Shown one piece after another: positions 3,474 through 43,001 of a stretch of 50,495 nucleotides of DNA (position 1 is its first letter; the number at the start of each line of letters is the position of its first letter). This DNA is from Candidatus Enterousia sp. (GTDB taxonomy: Bacteria; Pseudomonadota; Alphaproteobacteria; Rs-D84). The DNA lies in contig JAZSAG010000016.1 in assembly GCA_045601765.1 (NCBI GenBank), positions 1-50,495 on the forward strand. The letters run 5' to 3'. Under the pieces are notes generated by a model. It made no database searches. It was not told the origin of the DNA and saw only the letters and a list, made by a program, of their open reading frames with translations. Both the position numbers and the translations under genes were made by a program.

Positions 3474-3506
3474 TTGTCATTGCGAGCGTACGCGTGGCAA
3501 TCCAGT
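3474..3506 (+). repeat. Palindromic REP/MITE-like unit A (ttgtcattgcgag...gtggcaatccagt), copy 1
   Basis: Near-identical to copies at 3520-3560, 3687-3719 (reverse complement) and 37171-37203. Has internal dyad cattgc/gcaatc. Confidence 0.8.
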
Positions 3507-3519
3507 CTGTTCTTCCTTT

Positions 3520-3560
3520 TTGTCATTGCGAGGGAACGATAGTGACCGTGGCAATCCAGT
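3520..3560 (+). repeat. Palindromic REP/MITE-like unit A, copy 2 (longer spacer)
   Basis: ttgtcattgcgagggaacgatagtgaccgtggcaatccagt; same termini as copy 1. Confidence 0.75.
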
Positions 3561-3573
3561 AAATCATTCTCCT

Positions 3574-3610
3574 CTGTCATCCTGTGGCTTGTTCGGGCCC
3601 CGCAAAAATG
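3574..3610 (+). repeat. Palindromic repeat unit B (ctgtcatcctgtggcttgttcgggccccgcaaaaatg)
   Basis: Reverse-complement copy at 3835-3873 and partial copy at 3798-3823. Confidence 0.75.
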
Positions 3611-3686
3611 AAATTTTTGTGGGTGATGTCTCCAGGACCCAGGTGGATGTGTAGTGCGAAGCACACATTATTATAATAATGTATCA

Positions 3687-3719
3687 ACTGGATTGCCACG
3701 CGTCCGCTCGCAATGACAA
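3687..3719 (-). repeat. Palindromic REP/MITE-like unit A, copy 3 (inverted)
   Basis: Its reverse complement ttgtcattgcgagcggacgcgtggcaatccagt is identical to the copy at 37171-37203. Preceded by cattattataa, as is the inverted A copy at 37232-37275. Confidence 0.8.
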
Positions 3720-3952: not shown

Positions 3953-5449
3953 TTACTCGGTTGTTGTGCTTTCGACCAATTTCCATCCCATAAACGTATA
4001 CCCTGGTTTAACTGGGTCTTCTGGTAATGTAACCGGCCCATCATAATAACACATATTTTGTGTTGACGCACCACCATTATCCGGATTCCAATCGATATTG
4101 ATTGTATTTGCGGTACATGCGTATGTGATATATGCGCCACCTGGGTATTCATAAAAGGTTTCTGGTATCGGAACTATACACGACTGTGCACCAGTATTAT
4201 ACATCATAATACACATAAGCATAGCTAACCAACCCGTGCCAGCCGCTTCAAACATTGTTTCTTCGGTAATTTTTTCTGTCCCAAATGTTGAAACGTGGTC
4301 GTATTCAGGGATATCTATACCCTGAATGCTTGTATACTTAGTTTCTACTATATAATATGTAGATTCATAATACGATGTTTCACCACTGTAACTTATGCCA
4401 CGAGAAGATACATATACATACCAATCACCATTTTTTGCATTTTGACGAAATTCCGATAAATTTGGCATTTGTTTTGCCGCCGTACTGCAATCAATAGCGG
4501 TTGGATCTGCCAGAGTTGCTCCAAAATAGTCTGGCCCCTTGCCAACATCTTTAAACTTATTAAAAGTATAACAATGTTCGATGCCATCAAAATCCTTGTC
4601 ATAAAAGTAACCGCCTTCTGCTATATATGCATTACCGGACTCTTCAAGTTGGTCTGCAATAAGGTTTAGCCATGGTTGTGCCGGCATTTTTGTTGATAAA
4701 TCGTCAGGGTGTTGTATTTTATCAATAGACGTTAATATCGTTTGATATTCTATTGAGTCTTCGGGCAGTGCTTCTGTCAACTCGTTCCAATTGTCACGAA
4801 TCATTATTGCATATTCTTTTGAACTTGACCGCATTTCTTCAAGCGTGTCTTTTGGCACAAATTCTATGTACGAACCAGATTCTATTCTTAGCATAAAATC
4901 AATATAGGCATCTGTAGCCTGCTCTTCTGTTAAATCTGGTGCCTTATGATAACCTGTATCGCATTGAAAATTTATAGAACATTCCGGTGCAACTGCAGTA
5001 CATGTTCCACCGTAATATAATTTGCCGTTGGCTGTCTCATTACCATGTATTACGTTTATTGCATGGTTTGGTATAGATTGTTGGATACAGTTTACAGAAC
5101 ACCCCATATAACATTCAGATTCTGCCGTCGCGGCGGCGTCTGATGTGTAATCAGTGGGGCATGCGGTTTTACTGTTATTTGCCTCGACCGTAAAGGTTCC
5201 GCCCGGGCAATATGAACCAACGGGGCATTCGGTGCAGTTCAGTGTCGTTTCATCCAGGTATTGCCCCGCCGCGCATTCATAACTGTTCAGTGACCATGTT
5301 GCAATTGTGTTCGCGGTTGCATTATTGTCAGACACACCCAGGACGTCCACGGTACATGTGCCCGCGCCACCTGTTATAAGTCCGTCTTCTGCAAACGCGC
5401 CCGTCATGGTCATTATCAGTGTACTGGATAAAAATAAAACTTTTTTCAT
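3953..5449 (-). CDS. Secreted Cys-rich protein with C-terminal Listeria-Bacteroides (Flg_new)-type repeat; paralogue 1
   Basis: Start moved to ATG 5449 (GGGGGGA RBS; MKKVLFLSSTLIMTMTGAFA signal peptide). The N-terminal ~190 aa and C-terminal ~45 aa (NIDWNPDNG...PVKPGYTFMGWKL) match the 35781-37097 product. CxxCPxGSYCPGG motif. Confidence 0.85.
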   Translation of the reverse strand: MKKVLFLSSTLIMTMTGAFAEDGLITGGAGTCTVDVLGVSDNNATANTIATWSLNSYECAAGQYLDETTLNCTECPVGSYCPGGTFTVEANNSKTACPTDYTSDAAATAESECYMGCSVNCIQQSIPNHAINVIHGNETANGKLYYGGTCTAVAPECSINFQCDTGYHKAPDLTEEQATDAYIDFMLRIESGSYIEFVPKDTLEEMRSSSKEYAIMIRDNWNELTEALPEDSIEYQTILTSIDKIQHPDDLSTKMPAQPWLNLIADQLEESGNAYIAEGGYFYDKDFDGIEHCYTFNKFKDVGKGPDYFGATLADPTAIDCSTAAKQMPNLSEFRQNAKNGDWYVYVSSRGISYSGETSYYESTYYIVETKYTSIQGIDIPEYDHVSTFGTEKITEETMFEAAGTGWLAMLMCIMMYNTGAQSCIVPIPETFYEYPGGAYITYACTANTINIDWNPDNGGASTQNMCYYDGPVTLPEDPVKPGYTFMGWKLVESTTTE

Positions 5450-5469: not shown

Positions 5470-5595
5470 AAATTAAAAACCGCCACAAGTTTGACGGTCG
5501 GGGAGTTAGCAATCATTTCAACGGTGATTCTGATGTTTTCGGGTTACCCCTGTTGTATAACAATCAGCCCCCCGACTGCACACACAGTCAGGGAT
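5470..5595 (-). promoter_or_regulatory. Structured 5' leader (hairpin + alternative pairing + intrinsic terminator) of paralogue 1
   Basis: Minus-strand order: ccctgactg/cagtcgggg hairpin, GGCTG, spacer, then ctccccgacc complementary to the hairpin 3' arm. That segment overlaps terminator accgtca-aacttg-tggcggt + TTTTT. Same architecture as 35620-35736. Confidence 0.55.
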
Positions 5596-5774
5596 AATTA
5601 ACGATGCAAAAACATTGAAAGATATCGGATTTACGATGTCTGTATCTTTGCACCGGTTGAAACAGGCCGCTACAGCCCCGAACCGACATCCCTGTCAGTT
5701 CAATATACATATTACTAAAAAATAGGGGTTATTGCAAGTGTGAAAGCGTGTTCAAAATATAAAGTGTGGAATTG

Positions 5775-35417: not shown

Positions 35418-35442
35418 AAAATGCCCCACCGGGCATTTTTTT
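35417..35442 (+). terminator. Rho-independent terminator of yidC
   Basis: aaaaaatgccc-cacc-gggcattttttt. Confidence 0.75.
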
Positions 35443-35619
35443 GTGCAATGTGATTCAGGGCCCGACCACTAACACATTTTCCCCTTGCGGGTAACAGTCA
35501 TATTTGATAAAATAGTTACGTCATCAGTGGTTATTGATGATGGGGTGTGACTACCCGTGCACAAAGCGTCTGGGATAAGAACAAGGCGCCATTTGGCGTA
35601 TTTTTTATATCACAGATGA

Positions 35620-35736
35620 CAAATCTCCTGACTTAGACGGTCAGGAGGGCTGCGAATATATTGAATAAGCACACAATACTTTGTGATTGTAGTCAACCTC
35701 CTGACCACTGTTTTAATCGGTGGTTTTGTTTTTTTG
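35620..35736 (+). promoter_or_regulatory. Structured 5' leader (hairpin + alternative pairing + intrinsic terminator) of paralogue 2
   Basis: ctcctgac (35625-32)/gtcaggag (35640-47) hairpin, then GGCTG. cctcctgac (35697-705) is complementary to the hairpin 3' arm and overlaps terminator gaccactg-ttttaat-cggtggtt + T-run (35703-35735). Confidence 0.55.
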
Positions 35737-35780
35737 CAAAACCCCGATACAGACAGAAAAAACAAGGGGAGAATGCACAC

Positions 35781-37097
35781 ATGAAAAAAGTTTTATTTTT
35801 ATCCAGTATGCTGATTATGACAGCTTTTAACGCATTTGCGGACGACGCAGCGCCAAACACAGACAAAAAAATTACGGGCGGTGCGGGTACATGTACGGCG
35901 GACGTCCTGGGCGTATCCGACAATAACGCAACGGCAAACACCATTGCAACATGGTCGTTGAACAGTTATGATTGCGCGGCGGGACAATATCTGGATGAAA
36001 CAACATTAGAATGCATCGAATGCCCAACCGGTTCGTATTGTCCGGGCGGCACGTTCACGGTCGAGGCAAATAACAGTAAAACCGCATGTCCCGCCGATTA
36101 TACATCAGACGCCGCCGCCACGGCAGAATCTGAATGTTACATGGGGTGCGAATTGGTGTGTACACAACAAACATGTCCCGAACATTCTGAAAACTGCACG
36201 CACGGCGTGTCTGTTATTAATGGCGCGCAATATTATGGGCAATCAACATGTGACGCATTACCAAGATTTTGTAGTATGGATTTCGCATGCAAAACAGGTT
36301 ATACAAAAGTATCAACAATAATGAATTATATCTTGAATGATATATATGCTAAAACATTTGATGAATCTGGTATAGATTCACCGGTGGTGCATTTTGATAC
36401 GTGCGATGCAACAATGGAAACATGCACCGCAATTTTACAGTGGCGAATGCCTGAATTTGGGGACACAATAATTGCAATAATGTTTGAATACCGCTTTAAT
36501 AATGATAAAAATATTATACAAAATAATAAAATTAAAGACTTGGATATTAACGGACGTGGCGAACCGATACAAATATCTGTATTATCATATGATACAAATA
36601 TTTCTATGGATAATAATTTTTCCGTTATCTATGCACGCCCATCTGCATTTGTATTATTGACCCAAAATCTGATGTCTGAATTAAGCATATTACAAACAGA
36701 ACTTGAAAAAGATTTTGCAGATGGTTTAATTACAGAAGAAGAAGCGACGGAAAAATTTTCTGAGTTTGAAGCCAGATTATTAAAACCTATGAATTTACCC
36801 TGGATGGCTTTGATTAATTCTGAAGAACCTATTAGTTATAATGATCCAGAGGGTTGGGCGGAATTTGCAGTACAAATGTTTCTATTGCTTACTATGCAAA
36901 CCCCATTTTTTGTTGATGCAGTATATGGTGATATATCATACGTAAGGTGCGACAAGAATATAATCAATATCAACTGGAATCCGGATAATGGGAAAGATAC
37001 GATACAAGATATGTGTTATTACGATGGTGCAATCAGAGTACCAGACGACCCAGTTAAACCAGGATACACGTTTATGGGTTGGAAATTGGCCGAGTAA
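35781..37097 (+). CDS. Secreted Cys-rich protein with C-terminal Listeria-Bacteroides (Flg_new)-type repeat; paralogue 2
   Basis: Start moved to ATG 35781 (AAGGGGA RBS; MKKVLFLSSMLIMTAFNAFA signal peptide). N-terminal ~190 aa and C-terminal NINWNPDNG...PVKPGYTFMGWKL are shared with 3953-5449; the centre is unrelated. Confidence 0.85.
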   Translation: MKKVLFLSSMLIMTAFNAFADDAAPNTDKKITGGAGTCTADVLGVSDNNATANTIATWSLNSYDCAAGQYLDETTLECIECPTGSYCPGGTFTVEANNSKTACPADYTSDAAATAESECYMGCELVCTQQTCPEHSENCTHGVSVINGAQYYGQSTCDALPRFCSMDFACKTGYTKVSTIMNYILNDIYAKTFDESGIDSPVVHFDTCDATMETCTAILQWRMPEFGDTIIAIMFEYRFNNDKNIIQNNKIKDLDINGRGEPIQISVLSYDTNISMDNNFSVIYARPSAFVLLTQNLMSELSILQTELEKDFADGLITEEEATEKFSEFEARLLKPMNLPWMALINSEEPISYNDPEGWAEFAVQMFLLLTMQTPFFVDAVYGDISYVRCDKNIININWNPDNGKDTIQDMCYYDGAIRVPDDPVKPGYTFMGWKLAE

Positions 37098-37170: not shown

Positions 37171-37203
37171 TTGTCATTGCGAGCGGACGCGTGGCAATCC
37201 AGT
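37171..37203 (+). repeat. Palindromic REP/MITE-like unit A, copy 4
   Basis: ttgtcattgcgagcggacgcgtggcaatccagt, identical to the reverse complement of 3687-3719. Confidence 0.8.
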
Positions 37204-37231
37204 TGATGCATTATTATAACAAGGCACAATT

Positions 37232-37275
37232 AACTGGATTGCCACGGGGGTTGCGCCCCCTTGCAATGCCAAAGG
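37232..37275 (-). repeat. Degenerate inverted unit A copy
   Basis: aactggattgccacgggggttgcgcccccttgcaatgccaaagg; forms an inverted pair with copy 4 across a cattattataa-containing spacer. Confidence 0.6.
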
Positions 37276-37292: not shown

Positions 37293-37339
37293 CACTAACC
37301 ACTTCCCACTTCCCACTAACCACTAATCACTAACCACTT
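37293..37339 (-). repeat. Degenerate short tandem repeats (reverse complement of the 3379-3434 family)
   Basis: cactaaccacttcccacttcccactaaccactaatcactaaccactt. Confidence 0.7.
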
Positions 37340-37661
37340 TATACAATTCATTTGGGGTTTGGATAAATATGTTACGCATTCCAATCGCATATTTGCAAAA
37401 TTGTACACACGTCCACGCGTGGCACGTATCTAAATCGCGGGGCAGGTCGCATGGCAAATACACAAATCGCCAACCGTGTGCCGTCAGTATTTTTATATCG
37501 CGCATATTTAATTTTATCTGTGCAATATTTCCGCGTGATATAAATTGGTGCATAATCAGGTTATCTGACGTCATTTCAATTGGCGCACAGTGTTTTATTT
37601 TACCACATAAAATGCGTGGCAATATTTTGGAAGTTTTTTCGGCAAATGCAATAATAATCAT
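37323..37661 (-). CDS. Hypothetical protein
   Basis: ORF shortened to ATG 37661 (AAGGA RBS 8 nt upstream). 112 aa, no family recognised. Its last codons and stop are supplied by the tandem repeats. Confidence 0.4.
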   Translation of the reverse strand: MIIIAFAEKTSKILPRILCGKIKHCAPIEMTSDNLIMHQFISRGNIAQIKLNMRDIKILTAHGWRFVYLPCDLPRDLDTCHAWTCVQFCKYAIGMRNIFIQTPNELYKVVSD

Positions 37662-37719
37662 TTTTTTATTCCTTGGTATATTTTGTATGCCACCGGCATA
37701 ACCGGTGGCACATGTTTCT

Positions 37720-38061
37720 TTAATCAATCCAGCCTCGTTTTTGTGCCGCATCATGCAGAATATTCATTGCGCGTCTCCATTGGTCGGCGGCGCGATTTTC
37801 GGCCCAAATATGTTGATGTGGTGCGCGTCTTTTGTCACCAAATTGTTTCATTATCATTAACTGTTCATCGCTAAGTTGCCCCGATAAGTATAATTTTGTA
37901 ATCATTGTTTCCACGTCCAGTATTTCACATGGTCGCCGTGTTTGAACTGTGCGCATACGTGCAAAATCATTTCGTACGGCCTTGGAATATAAAAACCAAA
38001 ACCACATTTGTTCGGCTGATTGAAATTTTTCGACAGATACCATTGTCATAACAGAGTTCAT
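37720..38061 (-). CDS. Hypothetical protein (possible small regulator)
   Basis: 113-aa ORF. WFWFLYSKAV... and LYLSGQLSDEQLMIMKQFG are reminiscent of a sigma-r4/LuxR-type helix pair, but I cannot assign a family. Confidence 0.45.
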   Translation of the reverse strand: MNSVMTMVSVEKFQSAEQMWFWFLYSKAVRNDFARMRTVQTRRPCEILDVETMITKLYLSGQLSDEQLMIMKQFGDKRRAPHQHIWAENRAADQWRRAMNILHDAAQKRGWID

Positions 38062-38320
38062 TTTTCTTTCTCCTTTGGTTGTTTTGTTATTGTTTACATA
38101 TATAATCTAAGAAAAGATTCCTGTGAAACACTACAACCAATGGTTGAAGTGTGAATCGGAAAACAGATTCGGAATTGCAATTTATGCTTTATGCGGCGAA
38201 TCGTTTTTCTTTACCTGATATATACATGTCTTAGATAAAAAAAAGTGCGCAACATTGCGCACGAAAAAGTATTGTTTTTTGTATGTTTTTGTCTTGTTTT
38301 TTATCCTTTTGGTTATTATA

Positions 38321-38347
38321 TTTAAAAACCGCCGTTACGGCGGTTTG
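38321..38347 (-). terminator. Rho-independent terminator of the virB8-10 operon
   Basis: On the minus strand caaaccgcc-gtaac-ggcggttttt, 3 nt after the virB10 stop. Confidence 0.75.
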
Positions 38348-38349
38348 AA

Positions 38350-40740
38350 TTACAGTATTGGCGGGAAACAATCTCCCCCAGATTCTGGACAACAGTTGAA
38401 TCCCATTTCGCCCATATCAGTATATATTTCACCCGCACAGCAACCATTTGCATCTGGCAGACTGCCATCTTCACAGGTTAAAACTGCGGCGGCTGGTTCT
38501 TGCGATGTTGATTCAGGTGCATCAAATGGATTTTGAATACTGCCATCATCATTATATGTCAGACCCAAAACCTGTTCATTATACGCCTGGTCACCCAGGA
38601 TTCCGAACGAACCACTGACGCTGTTATCGAACGATTGCGTTTGGTATTGGTTTTGGAATTGTTCTTGTTGGCTTTGGAACAAGGCATCTTGTTTTGCATT
38701 ATTCTTGGCCTGATAATTCAATGATTCGCAATAGAACAAAATGGTCCTGTAATCATATCCCTCGGTGGTGCCATCTACGGCAATGTTACTATTTGCTGTC
38801 CACAAACCTTTTGAATCCTTGGTACAATATTTTTGCATATCAAATGATCTGACCTGGCCGACCCATGAACCGTCATCTTTGCGTGTCACGCGTTCTTGTT
38901 CTGATTTCCATCCATCATAACGCGGCGCATTGCCATATCCCAACGCGCATTTTTTGCCATTACCATCACCGCATGACGCGATTAAATCAACAGGTGAATA
39001 TACCGTGATACGTGTGCCGGCGGCAATTGTAAACGGTGGAACGGTATTATCCATCATATCGACCAATAATTTCTGGGCAACCTGATTCCATGCAGTTATA
39101 ATTTCATTCTTTGCCAGTTCAGACGAACGTACTGTTCCACTTTGTACGACGGTATTATTATCCAAATCAATCTGATTGACGAACGCATCAGATACAGGCG
39201 CAATTAAATTTACCGCCGCAGGCACAATCGCAGTTAACATTGGCATAAAGAATTGTTCCAGATAATCTGAACTGCCATAACCGGGTATCCCAGAACGTCC
39301 CTGGGCGTCGCCTGAAAATGGTGCATTACCGCCATTAAAATTAAACTCTATACCATTTGGCAATATAAATTGATACCATCTTATATTCATGCGTCCGACC
39401 GTTGTATATGGCCCCGGCAATTCACCGGTGACATATCCCATCAACAATGTTCCGGTCGGTATTATAACATTACGGCCATTATCAGAATAAACATTTCTGT
39501 CCACTGTCGCACGCACAGGCAGAAAGCTGTTGGCTAATGCCTCGGGGTCTGCGCGAACATCAGACACAATTGTCGCAGGAATTGGTTTATATTGGCGCAA
39601 AACAAATTGTCTGTCATATTGCACAGATGATATCACAGAATCACCCGAAGATGTGTAATCGATATCCTCTTGTGGTTTTTGACGCAATACCAGTCGTTCT
39701 ACACCACCACTATCTTCTGGTATATCAGATTGTGTTGCGCGGTTTACTGTTTTTATCGCCGGTGTATTTGACAATTCTGGCATAATCCCAGACAGCACCG
39801 CACTGAACCCAATATGTTCTGCATCTGTACCGATTTTTTTGCCTGGATTGTCTATATCAGTAATAATGCCGTTATCTGGGTTATATATACCGGTTGGGTT
39901 ATCGCATTGTGTATCAGAAAAAGGATGAAACTTATATGTTCCTGCCTGGGGCTTGATCCAGCCAATTTGACGACCATAATTATCATATCCCGCAAATGCA
40001 TAATCTGAACATGCCTCGGGCGGGCGGGTGTACACAGGTTCCACCGGCTGTGAAAAAGACGCGATTGGTGGCGCAATTGATTCAATTTCTGATATAAATT
40101 CGTCTTCATAATAATCTGGTTCTGGTTCATATTCAGAACTGTAATCTGTTTCGTAAACTGCGGACGTATCGTATTCTTCATATGAATCTGGTTTTGCAAC
40201 AGGCGTTGAAACAGGCGTTGGTTCCACAACCACCGGGGATGTCGCGCCCAATGTCACAACAATCTTGGATGTTTTTTGCATTGCGTCATCCGCATCTGCA
40301 TCGTGCCATACAACAGATACAATATTTTGTTCAACCTTGCCTGCGACCGTCGGTTCATATTTCATATTTATCGAACATGTTATTGTATTGTCAATCATAC
40401 CCATTTGGCTGCACGCACTGGCAACAGAAAAACCATTTCTTTCGTTGTCTGGGGTCACAGACAGTATTTTGACAGGCGCCGTTGCAGATAATTCAACCTT
40501 TTGTTGTTTTTTATCGCCAACCAATACATCTGCCCAATTTATAACATCTGGTGAAATATTTAGTTCTGCGGACACACCATGATGTTGCCCCAGCCCCGCC
40601 TGACCAGCATTTTTTTTACCAGAAATCAGCAACGTTAACAAGATTAATACAATAATAAACGCAGCCCCCAGCAGTAACCACTGAACATTTTTTGGTATAT
40701 TCTGACGAATTTCTGATAAACTTATTTTTAGTTTTCCCAT
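38350..40740 (-). CDS. virB10: VirB10/TrbI-family type IV secretion protein with extra N- and C-terminal modules
   Basis: 796 aa. TM anchor (WLLLGAAFIIVLILLTLLISG). TrbI core (IIPTGTLLMGYVTGELPGP...IRWYQFILPNGIEFNF...DAQGRSGIPGYGSSDYLEQFFMPML...AAGTRITVYSPVDL) plus additional domains (see findings). Confidence 0.85.
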   Translation of the reverse strand: MGKLKISLSEIRQNIPKNVQWLLLGAAFIIVLILLTLLISGKKNAGQAGLGQHHGVSAELNISPDVINWADVLVGDKKQQKVELSATAPVKILSVTPDNERNGFSVASACSQMGMIDNTITCSINMKYEPTVAGKVEQNIVSVVWHDADADDAMQKTSKIVVTLGATSPVVVEPTPVSTPVAKPDSYEEYDTSAVYETDYSSEYEPEPDYYEDEFISEIESIAPPIASFSQPVEPVYTRPPEACSDYAFAGYDNYGRQIGWIKPQAGTYKFHPFSDTQCDNPTGIYNPDNGIITDIDNPGKKIGTDAEHIGFSAVLSGIMPELSNTPAIKTVNRATQSDIPEDSGGVERLVLRQKPQEDIDYTSSGDSVISSVQYDRQFVLRQYKPIPATIVSDVRADPEALANSFLPVRATVDRNVYSDNGRNVIIPTGTLLMGYVTGELPGPYTTVGRMNIRWYQFILPNGIEFNFNGGNAPFSGDAQGRSGIPGYGSSDYLEQFFMPMLTAIVPAAVNLIAPVSDAFVNQIDLDNNTVVQSGTVRSSELAKNEIITAWNQVAQKLLVDMMDNTVPPFTIAAGTRITVYSPVDLIASCGDGNGKKCALGYGNAPRYDGWKSEQERVTRKDDGSWVGQVRSFDMQKYCTKDSKGLWTANSNIAVDGTTEGYDYRTILFYCESLNYQAKNNAKQDALFQSQQEQFQNQYQTQSFDNSVSGSFGILGDQAYNEQVLGLTYNDDGSIQNPFDAPESTSQEPAAAVLTCEDGSLPDANGCCAGEIYTDMGEMGFNCCPESGGDCFPPIL

Positions 40741-40768
40741 TTAATAAACCCACTGCGTATATTTTTTA

Positions 40769-42298
40769 CTATTGCATTCTGACAACACTGCATGATTCTT
40801 GGCCACCGGTGTATTTAATCAGTTTATCACACAGTGTTTGCGCGGTGCTGATATCTGAAATTGGCCCGATACGCAGACGATATACCTTGGCCGCAGAAGA
40901 ACCCGCACCCAAATCGCCAACACCTTCGGCGTCTACTGCAAAGAATGCCATTTCTTCGTATGGTTTTAATATACCATTACCTTCGCCACCGCTGAATTTA
41001 GCCAACAATGCGGTCCAATGATCTTCCAGTGCCTTTACAGATGTATCTGATTTTAATTCAACCGCGACACCATTTTGATTGCTGGTAATCAGTGGAATAT
41101 TATTCTGTGGCAAATATGCACCTGCGGTATTACGCACAGTTGGTAACATGTTGACCACACTGCCTGATGATAACGCCGGTTGTGGTGCGTTATATGTGCC
41201 ATACCCCGCAGGCATATAATAACCTGCACCTGTTACCGGGTTAACTGTTGCAGTGTCTCCCATATACATTGGTGTTCCGGTATAATTCATGCCCATGCTC
41301 ATTGCGGCCATATCCTGGGTATATGCGATATTGTTCAAAGATTGCCCAGACAACATGCTTTGCGCAACATTGGCCTCGGCCAATGCCATAACAGATGCGG
41401 TATCTGCAATCAAGAACGGCTTTTCACGTCTTTTAATACAAACAATTCTTTGTCCACTGCGCAAAACCATATCACCCACAGCCTCGACAATCAATAAACG
41501 ACCATCTTCGCCATCTGTGCGGAACCCAACAGGGGATTCGCCACCTTCGACCAATAATGATACAACCGGTCTTTGGGTCATTGATATAACCTTGTCGCCA
41601 AAGTCGATATATGTAAAGATTCTGTCGCGCCATACACGTTCAGGGGCGATAACATAGTCATCTGGATTTGGTACAAATATATCTAAATCAAAACGAAATT
41701 CAGATGGATCAATTTTCATTGATTTTATCCAACCATAATCTTCGCCATCAACGCCCACGGTATTTGTTGATTTGGCTTGTTTGTTGAATATAGATTTTGC
41801 GCCACTGGATGTTGTTTTTGCACCGGCCATTGGCAATGCGCTATTGCCATCTAATAATACATCAACATGTGAATATGTAACCTCGCTGGCGTTTGATGGT
41901 TCGCTGCGCAGATAGAAAACGTATTTATTCCCAGATTGCCCCGTTACAATTAGATTTGTATCAGACCCCTGATTGCCGGACGCCGGTGATATAAACATAG
42001 TTCTGTCACCCTGGGTTGCGTCTATTTGAAATGCGCCGCTGTCACCAACAATTGCGTCTGCAATTTGTTCCCCGTTGGGCAGGTTAATCATTGTTACCAT
42101 ACCATTGCGTAATTTGACGGGCAGAACCGAACCTTCGGACCAAGACAGTTGTGCGTATCCTGGTTTAACACTGCCTGCGGCCATATTGGCACTTGGGTTA
42201 TCCCACGCCGCCTGTATTCCGGCGTACCCCGGTAACATAAACAACCCCGTCATGCAAATAACAGAAATATTCCATTTTAATATTTTTACAAGTGTCAT
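40769..42298 (-). CDS. virB9: VirB9/TrbG/CagX-family type IV secretion protein with C-terminal SPOR-like domain
   Basis: Start moved to ATG 42298 (signal peptide MTLVKILKWNISVICMTGLFMLPGYAG, AAGGA RBS). VirB9 N-domain (TNLIVTGQSGNKYVFYL) and C-domain (RIFTYIDFGDK...LRSGQRIVCIKR). About 200 aa extension ends in a SPOR-like fold. Confidence 0.85.
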   Translation of the reverse strand: MTLVKILKWNISVICMTGLFMLPGYAGIQAAWDNPSANMAAGSVKPGYAQLSWSEGSVLPVKLRNGMVTMINLPNGEQIADAIVGDSGAFQIDATQGDRTMFISPASGNQGSDTNLIVTGQSGNKYVFYLRSEPSNASEVTYSHVDVLLDGNSALPMAGAKTTSSGAKSIFNKQAKSTNTVGVDGEDYGWIKSMKIDPSEFRFDLDIFVPNPDDYVIAPERVWRDRIFTYIDFGDKVISMTQRPVVSLLVEGGESPVGFRTDGEDGRLLIVEAVGDMVLRSGQRIVCIKRREKPFLIADTASVMALAEANVAQSMLSGQSLNNIAYTQDMAAMSMGMNYTGTPMYMGDTATVNPVTGAGYYMPAGYGTYNAPQPALSSGSVVNMLPTVRNTAGAYLPQNNIPLITSNQNGVAVELKSDTSVKALEDHWTALLAKFSGGEGNGILKPYEEMAFFAVDAEGVGDLGAGSSAAKVYRLRIGPISDISTAQTLCDKLIKYTGGQESCSVVRMQ

Positions 42299-42323
42299 AC
42301 CAATCCTTCCCTTGTTTTTGTTT

Positions 42324-43001
42324 TTATTCCGCCAGCAATCCTGTATCCAGCGGATCACCATTGCCAGATGTTATTTCATATTCAGAAACACGTATCCCCA
42401 GTGGGTTGTCAATTTTACTTGCCCACTTAATGATATTCTCCTTTTGTGTTTCAATCTTTATCCGTATTGTATAATCTTTTTGTGCCACAGGTCCAGCAGA
42501 ATCTTCACAAAAATACCTAAATTTTACCTGATAAGTATCTTGGCCATATGCACTGGACAATAATAACGGTTCTGTATCAAAGTATACATCGCACTTTACA
42601 TCATAATTCGGTGCCCCGGTCATTATTTCATTAAACGCAAATGTGTTCGCGAATTTAGAATAAACGTTGTCCGTGGAAATAGTTCTGACAAACCCGTCAA
42701 GACTGTTCCATTTTTTATTCATCACCTTGGCATTATTAATAATTTCGTTGCGGTGTCTGACATATTCGCGTACCAAAGACTTTTTGTATATGTCCAAATT
42801 TTCACTTTCTGGCGGCATTTGTTCCAGTTTTACACTTTGGTCTGCGCGCATAGTTGTTGTCAAAAAGAATATTTGCGGTCTGTTCAGTGGGAACATTTTG
42901 TACAACGTAAACGCCAATACCCCCAGTACAACCAATGCGGTTGCCAACACAAATGTCATCAATCTTGACAGCAAAACAGGCGGTTTTAAAGGCTGTTGCA
43001 C
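42324..43001 (-). CDS. virB8: VirB8-family type IV secretion protein
   Basis: 225 aa, GTG start with GGGGAG RBS 6 nt upstream. N-terminal TM, then NTF2-like periplasmic domain (SLVREYVRHRNEI...YQVKFRYF...YTIRIKIE). Position directly upstream of virB9/virB10. Confidence 0.75.
   Translation of the reverse strand: MQQPLKPPVLLSRLMTFVLATALVVLGVLAFTLYKMFPLNRPQIFFLTTTMRADQSVKLEQMPPESENLDIYKKSLVREYVRHRNEIINNAKVMNKKWNSLDGFVRTISTDNVYSKFANTFAFNEIMTGAPNYDVKCDVYFDTEPLLLSSAYGQDTYQVKFRYFCEDSAGPVAQKDYTIRIKIETQKENIIKWASKIDNPLGIRVSEYEITSGNGDPLDTGLLAE

Follow-up and report, generated by a model that had tools for sequence, protein, structure and literature searches.

A structured leader that looks like an undescribed RNA on/off switch upstream of two surface-protein paralogues in Candidatus Enterousia

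How are the two paralogous genes for secreted, Cys-rich proteins controlled that lie on a contig of Candidatus Enterousia sp. (JAZSAG010000016.1 of assembly GCA_045601765.1, positions 1 to 50,495, a stretch called the window throughout)? Candidatus Enterousia (order Rs-D84) comprises uncultured gut Alphaproteobacteria with genomes of less than 1 Mb (PMC12306168). A preliminary description of the window had noted, upstream of both genes, a hairpin, a downstream segment complementary to its 3' arm and an intrinsic terminator overlapping that segment, and all three were found where it had placed them in both loci. Our analysis revealed in front of both paralogues what looks like an undescribed RNA on/off switch, and its best reading is a terminator/antiterminator/anti-antiterminator switch, either riboswitch-like or protein-dependent. 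The earlier observation was confirmed as real and its interpretation as largely right; what it had overlooked were a three-way junction and a pseudoknot.

The whole leader is about 215 nt long, and three of its segments engage in mutually exclusive pairings: S1 with S2 in a local hairpin, S2 with S3 in a long-range stem (P1), and S3 with T in the terminator. For paralogue 2, on the plus strand, the switch extends over 35623-35735. S1 (CUCCUGAC, AUCUCCUGACU; 35623-33) is the anti-antiterminator strand and pairs with S2 (GUCAGGAG, GGUCAGGAGGG; 35639-49), the shared strand, which is able to pair either with S1 in the local hairpin or with S3 in P1; S3 (CCUCCUGACC, ACCUCCUGACC; 35696-35706) supplies the 3' strand of P1, that is, of the antiterminator. 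The terminator, with the stem GACCACUG/CGGUGGUU, occupies 35703-25 and is followed by the U tract UUUUGUUUUUUU at 35726-35735. For paralogue 1, on the minus strand, the switch covers 5596-5470, with S1 at 5596-86, S2 at 5577-67, S3 at 5506-5496, the terminator at 5499-5478 and its U tract at 5477-70. Both terminators were called by a terminator scan, in which each region contained 4-5 terminator-like sites against 0.7 expected, and the folds of the two leaders were much more stable than those of shuffled sequences (z values of -6.9 and -3.95). The last four nucleotides of S3 (GACC or AACC) are also the start of the terminator 5' arm, and P1 and the terminator are therefore mutually exclusive. 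Two marks of an attenuator or expression platform were present: a G+C-rich hairpin with a U tract 5' of the start codon, from which the U tract is separated by only 35-45 nt in the two window loci, and a conserved alternative helix, S2:S3, overlapping the terminator 5' arm (GACC/AACC).

Homologous leaders were obtained from the upstream regions of paralogues pulled from genome and metagenome contigs; a metagenome scan for further homologues gave few usable loci. These upstream regions fell into three classes, namely the switch-leader class, a (GA)n-repeat class and a class with insertions resembling miniature inverted-repeat transposable elements (MITEs). A covariance model (CM) trained on 20 leaders of the switch-leader class recovered 28 full-length leaders and one cut at a contig end in about 0.5 Mb of Enterousia sequence (51-90 bits), all of them in sense orientation and directly 5' of genes for secreted Cys-rich or Flg_new proteins, with MITE-like insertions between leader and gene at one locus. 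In the window it found exactly two copies, 35617-35733 and 5470-5602, the paralogue-1 copy scoring 66.2 bits. Pairs were counted in two alignments that had been N-padded and curated by hand (A5, A7) and in a third that was made with the CM (A6). The plain MAFFT alignments A1 and A3 were not used for this purpose because their G-rich helices were one column out of register, and A6 was not usable for P1 because of the gap placement in leader types II and III. As a control, the 3' partners were moved by 1-3 columns.

The three helices S1:S2, S2:S3 and terminator proved to be 94-99% paired over 27-28 homologous leaders, each with 4-7 doubly substituted pairs, whereas the partner-shifted controls were only 26-57% paired. 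S1:S2 was paired at 94-95% with double changes in 5-7 of 10 pairs, S2:S3 at 96-97% (4 of 10 pairs) and the terminator helix at 98.6% (4 of 8 pairs), and the first four columns of the U tract were invariant. The mutually exclusive, covarying pairings that had been proposed from the two loci are supported for all three helices in the 28 homologues. Across these leaders the stem sequences come in six or seven versions, for example CUCCUGAC/GGUCAGGAGG/CCUCCUGACC, CCUCCAACC/GGUUGGAGG, GCCCGAC/GGUCGGGAAG/CUUCCCGACC and CCCUGACU/AGUCGGGGGG/CUCCCCGAC. G-U pairs were frequent and strand-specific (among them GU:22 and UG:11 for the terminator helix and UG:14 for S1:S2), indicating RNA structure formed on the sense strand.

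The strengths of the competing helices were also compared. The cognate S2:S3 duplex was stronger than S1:S2 in six of the seven stem types and equal to it in the seventh, and cognate S2:S3 duplexes were the best or near the best among all cross-combinations. At the base of S1:S2 the pairs are G-U or mismatched, and the identical S2 bases pair Watson-Crick with S3. Such a layout, a stronger S2:S3 facing an S1:S2 hairpin with a weak base, is the one expected for strand displacement. When folds were constrained to contain S2:S3 (ON) or S1:S2 and the terminator (OFF), the two states differed by no more than 6.8 kcal/mol in 28 of 28 leaders. The minimum free energy fold further contained an alternative hairpin, GGUUUUG-UUUUUUUG-CAAAACC (35722..35743, plus strand), in which the terminator 3' arm and the U tract pair with the downstream CAAAACC(AC). 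It was present in paralogue-2 type leaders only, its GGUGGUUUUG...CAAAACCAC is conserved in type I leaders, and it could form in read-through transcripts only.

The stretch between S2 and S3, described at first as a spacer, is structured. It contains two helices, P2 and P3, so that P1, P2 and P3 form a three-way junction. In paralogue 2, P2 is a 3-bp stem UGC/GCA that closes the conserved loop GAAUAUAUUGAAUAA (35651..35671), and P3 is the hairpin ACAAU/AUUGU (35673..35690), whose loop (35678-85) holds CUUUGUG (35679-85), the 3' strand of the pseudoknot (PK3'). In paralogue 1 (minus strand), P2 lies at 5567-30 and P3 at 5529-11, with PK3' at 5522-16. P2 was paired in 98-100% of cases with double changes in 3 of 3 pairs, and P3 in 100% with double changes in 4 of 5 pairs. 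The GGCTG that had been taken for a conserved box proved to join the end of S2 to the 5' strand of stem P2; this stem covaries as UGC/GCA, GGC/GCC, GAC/GUC and GAU/AUC. In the paralogue-2 type, P2 is reduced to its 3-bp stem with a 15-nt loop and has no apical hairpin; homologue L004, where the apical hairpin is retained, is an intermediate. In the curated alignments, the complete OFF set of helices (S1:S2, P2, P3 and terminator) was 96.7-97.5% paired with 17-23 double-substituted pairs, and the ON set (S2:S3 as P1, P2 and P3) was 97.0-97.5% paired; the CM-made alignment agreed with this as regards the OFF helices. Helix by helix, pairing in 20-28 leaders ranged from 94 to 100% for the three competing helices, P2 and P3.

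The P3 loop pairs with a segment far upstream. In paralogue 2 the 5' strand of this pseudoknot (PK5') is CACAAAG at 35560..35566, within GTGCACAAAG, and in paralogue 1 it is UUUCAAC (5662-5656, minus strand), which pairs with GUUGAAA (5522-16). The partner segment lies between the 5' hairpins H-b and H-c, 20-70 nt 5' of S1 and about 100 nt 5' of the loop. The preliminary description had regarded GTGCACAAAG as a box common to both loci; in paralogue 2 it is real, as the pseudoknot strand, but its supposed paralogue-1 counterpart GTGCAAAG is the 5' strand of H-c and belongs to a different hairpin. Of the 27 leaders whose upstream sequence was usable, 26 had seven to nine contiguous Watson-Crick pairs at the homologous position; the exception, L050, is without the pseudoknot. 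The pairing occurs in 13 sequence versions and is always Watson-Crick: the strands UCAAACG, UUACCAG, UCAGAAG, UCCAUAG, CACUAAG and CGUCAUU (the last in L002, as CGUCAUU/AAUGACG), and likewise AACUUGCA, UUUAGCCU, AAAACGG, AACAAAG and AUAUAAGUU, each match their own loop. In alignment A7 all seven pseudoknot pairs were double-changed, with three or four Watson-Crick pair types each. An energy-only test over 110 nt, in which 5.8% of shuffles matched the observed energy, discriminated poorly and was therefore replaced by a test of contiguous Watson-Crick runs and a cross-pairing test. The longest run between a P3 loop and its own upstream sequence was 7-9 nt for 15 of 15 distinct loops as compared with mostly 2-4 nt for non-cognate combinations, and shuffled upstream sequence attained a run of at least 7 in 2.1% of trials. 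The loop thus pairs outside its hairpin and does so with covariation, as is required of an H-type pseudoknot. The linkers, 1 nt from the P3 5' strand to PK3' and 0 nt from PK3' to the P3 3' strand, fit a pseudoknot helix coaxially stacked on P3, by geometric reasoning and not by computation. Within the paralogue-2 type the pseudoknot is far more variable than the remaining leader. Among 13 leaders of a single genome of less than 1 Mb, 11 different codes of 7-9 nt were counted, each of them perfectly complementary, and the rest of the leader is nearly invariant. On a low-coverage metagenome contig (L051, 337-454), the pseudoknot strand CUCAAAG mismatches its own P3 loop UCUGGUA; this leader is either a recombinant of two leaders or a chimeric assembly.

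Upstream of S1 the leader has a 5' domain, and nearly every folded leader showed the same order: H-a, H-b (GGGG(Y)UGU...CCC), the pseudoknot strand, H-c, a short A-rich linker and S1. H-a (GUCAUCA-GUGGUUAU-UGAUGAU; 35520..35541, plus strand) was predicted with RNAfold in a set of 16 leaders, and its stems covary with differing sequences (GUCAUCA, UAAUCAAUAA, ACAG, GACAU, GAUUUACA, CUGACA); L017 has no clear H-a. A candidate "segment 0", located in H-a and supposed to pair with S1, was rejected: 7 nt are complementary in the paralogue-1 type (CAGGGAU/AUCCCUG), with no equivalent found by eye in other types. H-b, a small hairpin GGGGU-GUGACU-ACCCG (35542..35557, plus strand) with a conserved GGGG(Y)UGU 5' side, was predicted in 15 of the 16 folded leaders, being missing in the fold of L009, and it lies within one of the two most conserved blocks of the leader. 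H-c is a long, variable hairpin (CGUCUG...CAGAUG; 35567..35618, plus strand) whose basal stem covaries (CGUCUG/CAGAUG, CAUCUG/UAGAUG, CGUCA/UGGCG, UGUCCAA/UUGGAUA). It encloses a terminator-like hairpin at 35586-35599 followed by U6, which the terminator scan flagged. A small G+C-rich hairpin with a U run inside H-c (35586-35606 in the window) was seen in many leaders, with equivalents in L018, L025, L009 and L013, and may serve, 5' of the switch, either as a pause signal or as another terminator-like element. The folds of paralogue 1 placed its 5' domain at 5602..5698 on the minus strand (H-a 5698-5683, H-b 5679-5664, H-c 5655-5602).

In an alignment of the upstream regions, divergent leader types shared a TTGCnn box, a 17-nt spacer, a TAnAAT box and often an extended TG. 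The putative paralogue-2 promoter (35485..35513, plus strand) consists of TTGCGG at 35485-90 as the -35 box, the 17-nt spacer, TG at 35505-06 and TAAAAT at 35508-13 as the -10 box, and it stands just past the terminator of yidC. The putative paralogue-1 promoter (5709..5737, minus strand; TTGCAA 5737-32, 17-nt spacer, TAATAT 5714-09) aligns with it and is conserved in L001, L002 and L065. Since these boxes lie upstream of H-a, transcription is predicted to start at about 35518-35520 and 5700-5702. The preliminary proposal depended on transcription beginning before the element, and it is upstream of the element, not downstream of the terminator, that the conserved promoter boxes were found. Two other parts of that description had to be given up. 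The far-upstream stem cgggta...tacccg of paralogue 2 overlaps the conserved -35 box and is neither complementary nor compensated in other members, and the paralogue-1 stem cggtt...aaccg is not conserved or compensated in homologues and overlaps the better-supported pseudoknot strand.

Does the leader belong to a known RNA family? The whole window was searched with Rfam 15 (4227 families), and at gathering thresholds only three tRNAs were found; permissive scans of both leaders gave nothing significant except a sub-threshold match to sRNA-Xcc1 (RF02221, gathering score 53 bits). The earlier remark that the element was not recognised as any known riboswitch class thus stands, although the resemblance to sRNA-Xcc1 had been overlooked. 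The paralogue-1 junction scored 38.6 bits over 5488-5577, and the homologues L031, L001 and L002 scored 41.1, 36.0 and 28.8 bits, all full-length matches below 53; three genuine members scanned with Rfam by the same tool scored 69.7-72.6 bits. Paralogue 2 had no match to sRNA-Xcc1 at E below 10, because in its type P2 is cut to the 3-bp stem with the 15-nt loop. The likeness consists in a three-way junction in which the 5' strand of P1 is G-rich and P2 has an A-rich internal loop (AUACAAuA ... GAAuaa), in a P3 hairpin and in a J3/1 of the UUnnA type. The P1-P2-P3 junction with the A-rich P2 internal loop is seen in the paralogue-1 type, and the paralogue-2 type retains GAAUAUAUU-GAAUAA of the P2 loop, its loop GAAUAUAUUGAAUAA resembling both halves of the Xcc1 internal loop fused. 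Moreover, genuine members are followed by a gene at a distance of about 40-60 nt, in the same orientation where annotated, and their P3 loop takes part in a long-range covarying pairing too. However, in five Xcc1 loci the P3 loop complements the downstream ribosome-binding region, whereas the Enterousia loop pairs about 100 nt upstream. Xcc1 loci also lack the S1 competitor and the U-tract terminator, and they are found in front of symE, BRO or antirepressor genes of integrons, plasmids and phages, in contrast to the Enterousia element, which is chromosomal (with yidC and tRNA neighbours) and precedes surface-protein genes. A search of genuine Xcc1 loci with the OFF-state model gave no match to the core; only the part of an Aeromonas locus comprising S3 and the hairpin matched weakly, at 13.5 bits. 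Long-range pairing of the P3 loop is therefore common to both families, but with different partners and output modules, and we regard the Enterousia leader as distantly related or as a variant, and not as an Xcc1 member.

The genuine Xcc1 loci compared were L072 1182-1320, L073 1198-1320, L074 1185-1312, L075 699-822 and L076 688-812. Their pairs of P3 loop and ribosome-binding region covary (CUUUGUG/CACAAAG, CCUCUGCUUGG/CCAAGCAGAGG, CUGUUU/AAACAG and CUACUUG/CAAGUAG, with one locus bulged), a small hairpin overlaps the P1 3' end, and the genes downstream, on plasmids and phages, encode a hypothetical protein, a BRO protein and antirepressors. sRNA-Xcc1 is described in the literature as a trans-acting small RNA (sRNA) and was found as an 88-nt RNA with mapped ends (PMC2996969). 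The loci compared here suggest instead that Xcc1 acts in cis and regulates the translation of genes of the antirepressor, BRO or symE type.

Taken as a cis-acting 5' leader of about 215 nt that controls read-through into the surface-protein gene by transcription attenuation, which we regard as the probable function, the element would work as follows. RNA polymerase would pass, in order, the promoter, H-a, H-b, the single-stranded 7-nt "code" PK5', H-c, S1, S2, P2, P3, S3 and the terminator. S1 and S2 would first make their local hairpin, the anti-antiterminator. P2 and P3 would then fold, and the P3 loop would pair with PK5', stack on P3 and so close a compact domain. In the ON state, the emerging S3 would displace S1 from S2 to form P1, the closing helix of the three-way junction; P1 would sequester the GACC that begins the terminator stem, and RNA polymerase would read through. 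In the OFF state, S1:S2 would stay, the tail of S3 would pair with T, and transcription would end within the U tract, near 35726-35735 or 5477-5470. An effector may shift the balance between the two states; the likeliest candidates would be a small ligand or an RNA-binding protein, and candidate recognition sites are the conserved A-rich P2 loop (shared with Xcc1), the junction and the conserved H-a/H-b domain. The one metatranscriptome, which consists of assembled contigs, speaks neither for nor against such termination: a contig covered 35553-35733 and stopped in the U tract, although contig ends are not transcript ends, and for paralogue 1 a contig of a related leader extended past the predicted transcription start. 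The search for RNA runs containing paralogue 1 listed none.

Several points weigh against this reading. What the analysis shows are the helices with their mutual exclusivity, the pseudoknot, the features of the terminator and the location of the promoter boxes 5' of the element; termination, the direction of regulation and the existence of an effector are features that we infer from the sequence, and the promoters from conservation alone. A consensus promoter scan did not call the promoter of the paralogue-2 leader; the same scan reported one weak promoter-like site inside the leader (35634-35662) that was not above chance. The junction nucleotides are poorly conserved, which is unusual in a small-molecule pocket. 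Furthermore, knowledge of the structure guided the manual curation of the main alignments, and, apart from the pseudoknot, they contain few independent events because the compensatory changes stem from about 6-7 stem types within one genus.

Known attenuators offer a close comparison. The pyr leader of Bacillus subtilis with PyrR is the textbook terminator/antiterminator/anti-antiterminator attenuator. As in that type, a 5' hairpin of the Enterousia leader shares a strand with a large antiterminator stem-loop, and the antiterminator 3' strand overlaps the terminator 5' arm. However, the leader has no match to the PyrR binding site or to any other Rfam leader, and its conserved parts lie inside the antiterminator and the 5' domain; recognition of the anti-antiterminator by a protein is unlikely because the loop of the S1:S2 hairpin is not conserved. 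The adenine riboswitch of pbuE is an ON-type switch built on a three-way junction. It resembles the Enterousia leader in that the P1 3' strand of the junction is shared with the terminator, so that P1 formation leads to read-through, and in that a tertiary contact made by a hairpin loop organises the fold. The Enterousia leader is different in sequence and junction and has no Rfam match; it has the extra competitor strand S1, its loop contact is a pseudoknot with a far-upstream strand and not a loop-loop kiss, and its junction nucleotides are not conserved.

Other explanations of the same features must be weighed against transcription attenuation by a sensed effector. ON and OFF folds are nearly isoenergetic, the junction nucleotides are poorly conserved and H-c contains U-rich, pause-like hairpins, all of which would suit a switch with no dedicated effector, a kinetic or physical sensor in which temperature, RNA polymerase speed, nucleoside triphosphate pools or a general factor, for instance NusA/NusG, decide between S1 and S3, or a constitutive partial terminator that sets the expression level. 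Yet the conserved P2 loop, the H-a/H-b block and the elaborate pseudoknot exceed what a simple kinetic terminator needs, and we think such a switch rather unlikely. Slightly more doubtful to us is a stand-alone sRNA gene, whose RNA of about 215 nt acts in trans, with incidental alternative pairings and a downstream gene expressed through leakage or from its own start. The promoter-like boxes and strong terminator of the element, the RNA contig ending at the U tract and the resemblance to sRNA-Xcc1, detected as an 88-nt RNA with mapped ends (PMC2996969), speak for it. But the element is always in sense and immediately 5' of one gene family, no conserved promoter lies in the 35-45 nt before the start codon of the two window loci, and the covariation maintains S1:S2, S2:S3 and the 4-nt overlap with the terminator, which a plain sRNA could do without. 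The two functions are not exclusive, as a terminated leader could also act in trans.

We consider two further explanations to be very improbable. The 1:2 / 2:3 / 3:4 layout is that of classical attenuators of the trp/his type, in which a ribosome on S1 would free S2 for S3, and paralogue 2 has a 6-codon open reading frame (ORF), ATGACAAATCTCCTGACTTAG, across S1. This ORF was missed by our ORF script, so that short ORFs can escape it; even so, an ATG ORF over S1 was listed in just 7 of 13 representative leaders, these ORFs differ in frame, length and sequence, no Shine-Dalgarno-like sequence was seen in front of those that were inspected, and Rfam leader models scored no more than 17 bits. With no conserved short ORF over S1 in the 13 representatives, the leader peptide was rejected. 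S1 and S3 as direct repeats and S2 as an inverted repeat might equally be thought to serve site-specific recombination or inversion at the DNA level, that is, phase variation of a surface-protein gene, and the large, probably variable gene family and the (GA)n repeats of other paralogues would go with that. However, G-U accounts for many of the pairs and would count as a mismatch in DNA as well as on the opposite strand, the segment from S2 to S3 has only about 46-68 bp, and the pseudoknot and the terminator features have no rationale at the DNA level. DNA inversion was rejected as well, no strand-changing joints being found at the locus in four DNA metagenome runs. In the same four runs, depth was about 35-780 over 35518-35559 and 35644-35685 as compared with about 5-10 in the flanks; these high-depth blocks are the most conserved parts of the leader and are present in those communities in many copies or strains.

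The genes behind the leaders belong to one family. The paralogue-2 gene, on the plus strand, starts with the ATG at 35781 and encodes a secreted Cys-rich protein of 438 aa; together with its ribosome-binding site AAGGGGAG (35764-71) it spans 35764..37097. It is preceded by lspA, yidC and then the yidC terminator (35419-35446, terminator scan). The paralogue-1 gene encodes 498 aa on the minus strand (ATG 5449; 3953..5449), with a tRNA upstream. Both products are secreted and Cys-rich and have weak Pfam matches to Ephrin_rec_like and, C-terminally, to Flg_new (Listeria-Bacteroides repeat); for paralogue 2 both matches are below Pfam's curated cut-offs. The family is large and probably variable: 236 homologues were detectable in gut metagenomes, and the Enterousia genome JAZNBN01 has more than 30 copies, at least 13 of which bear the switch leader in that one genome. 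About the first 28 nt of both coding regions are identical (ATGAAAAAAGTTTTATTTTTATCCAGTA; 35781-35808 and 5449-5422), whereas the leaders are only about half identical, and the start of the signal peptide is kept at the nucleotide level throughout the family. Type IV secretion genes adjoin paralogue 2 (37323-42361, minus strand), the one scanned being TrbI/VirB10-like (38350-40740), and this neighbourhood recurs in the syntenic locus L062, where CagX/VirB9 and VirB8 are present.

The other two classes of upstream region were also observed. In leaders of the (GA)n class, which precede many other paralogues, two extended -10 boxes are followed by TCTA(GA)n, where n varies by locus between 6 and about 15; next come the hairpin GCAAAC..GUUUGC and a long hairpin that resembles a terminator (AAUAAUCACCUUAAUGGCA...UGCCAUUAAGGUGAUUAUUUUUUU). 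They occupy about 250 nt before position 3001 in L005, L006, L007, L011, L015, L020, L021, L028 and L030, and further at L063 20502-20800 (minus strand), L064 9750-10000, and L067 9750-10000 and 16650-16950; none was found in the window. The variable dinucleotide repeat suggests phase variation through slippage. MITE-like inverted repeats (UUGUCAUUGCGAG ... GGCAAUCCAGU) are located just 3' of both window paralogues (3476-3715 and 37173-37245), and in a related genome such repeats are inserted between leader and gene or replace the leader (L026 2300-3000; L012, L014, L016, L023).

At about 200 nt, well supported in its structure and combining a pseudoknot with a three-state terminator switch, this RNA is a strong candidate for a regulatory RNA of a new class. 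A more far-reaching version, which we put forward as a speculation unlikely to be correct, is a new effector-sensing class (a riboswitch or protein-dependent riboregulator) with an Xcc1-like three-way junction, whose fast-evolving pseudoknot serves as a locus-specific "bar code". If so, the more than 30 surface-protein paralogues could be regulated independently, or terminated leader RNAs could cross-talk with nascent leaders, and selective or mutually exclusive expression would amount to antigenic variation at the RNA level; the widespread "sRNA-Xcc1" family would then be a cis-regulatory sensor and not a trans-acting sRNA. The sub-threshold but consistent link, together with the complementarity of P3 loop and ribosome-binding site, suggests that Xcc1, filed as a trans-acting sRNA of integrons, plasmids and Stx-type phages, may be a sensor that works in cis. 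For a host-associated bacterium with a reduced genome, the leader offers a handle on the control of a variable surface repertoire.

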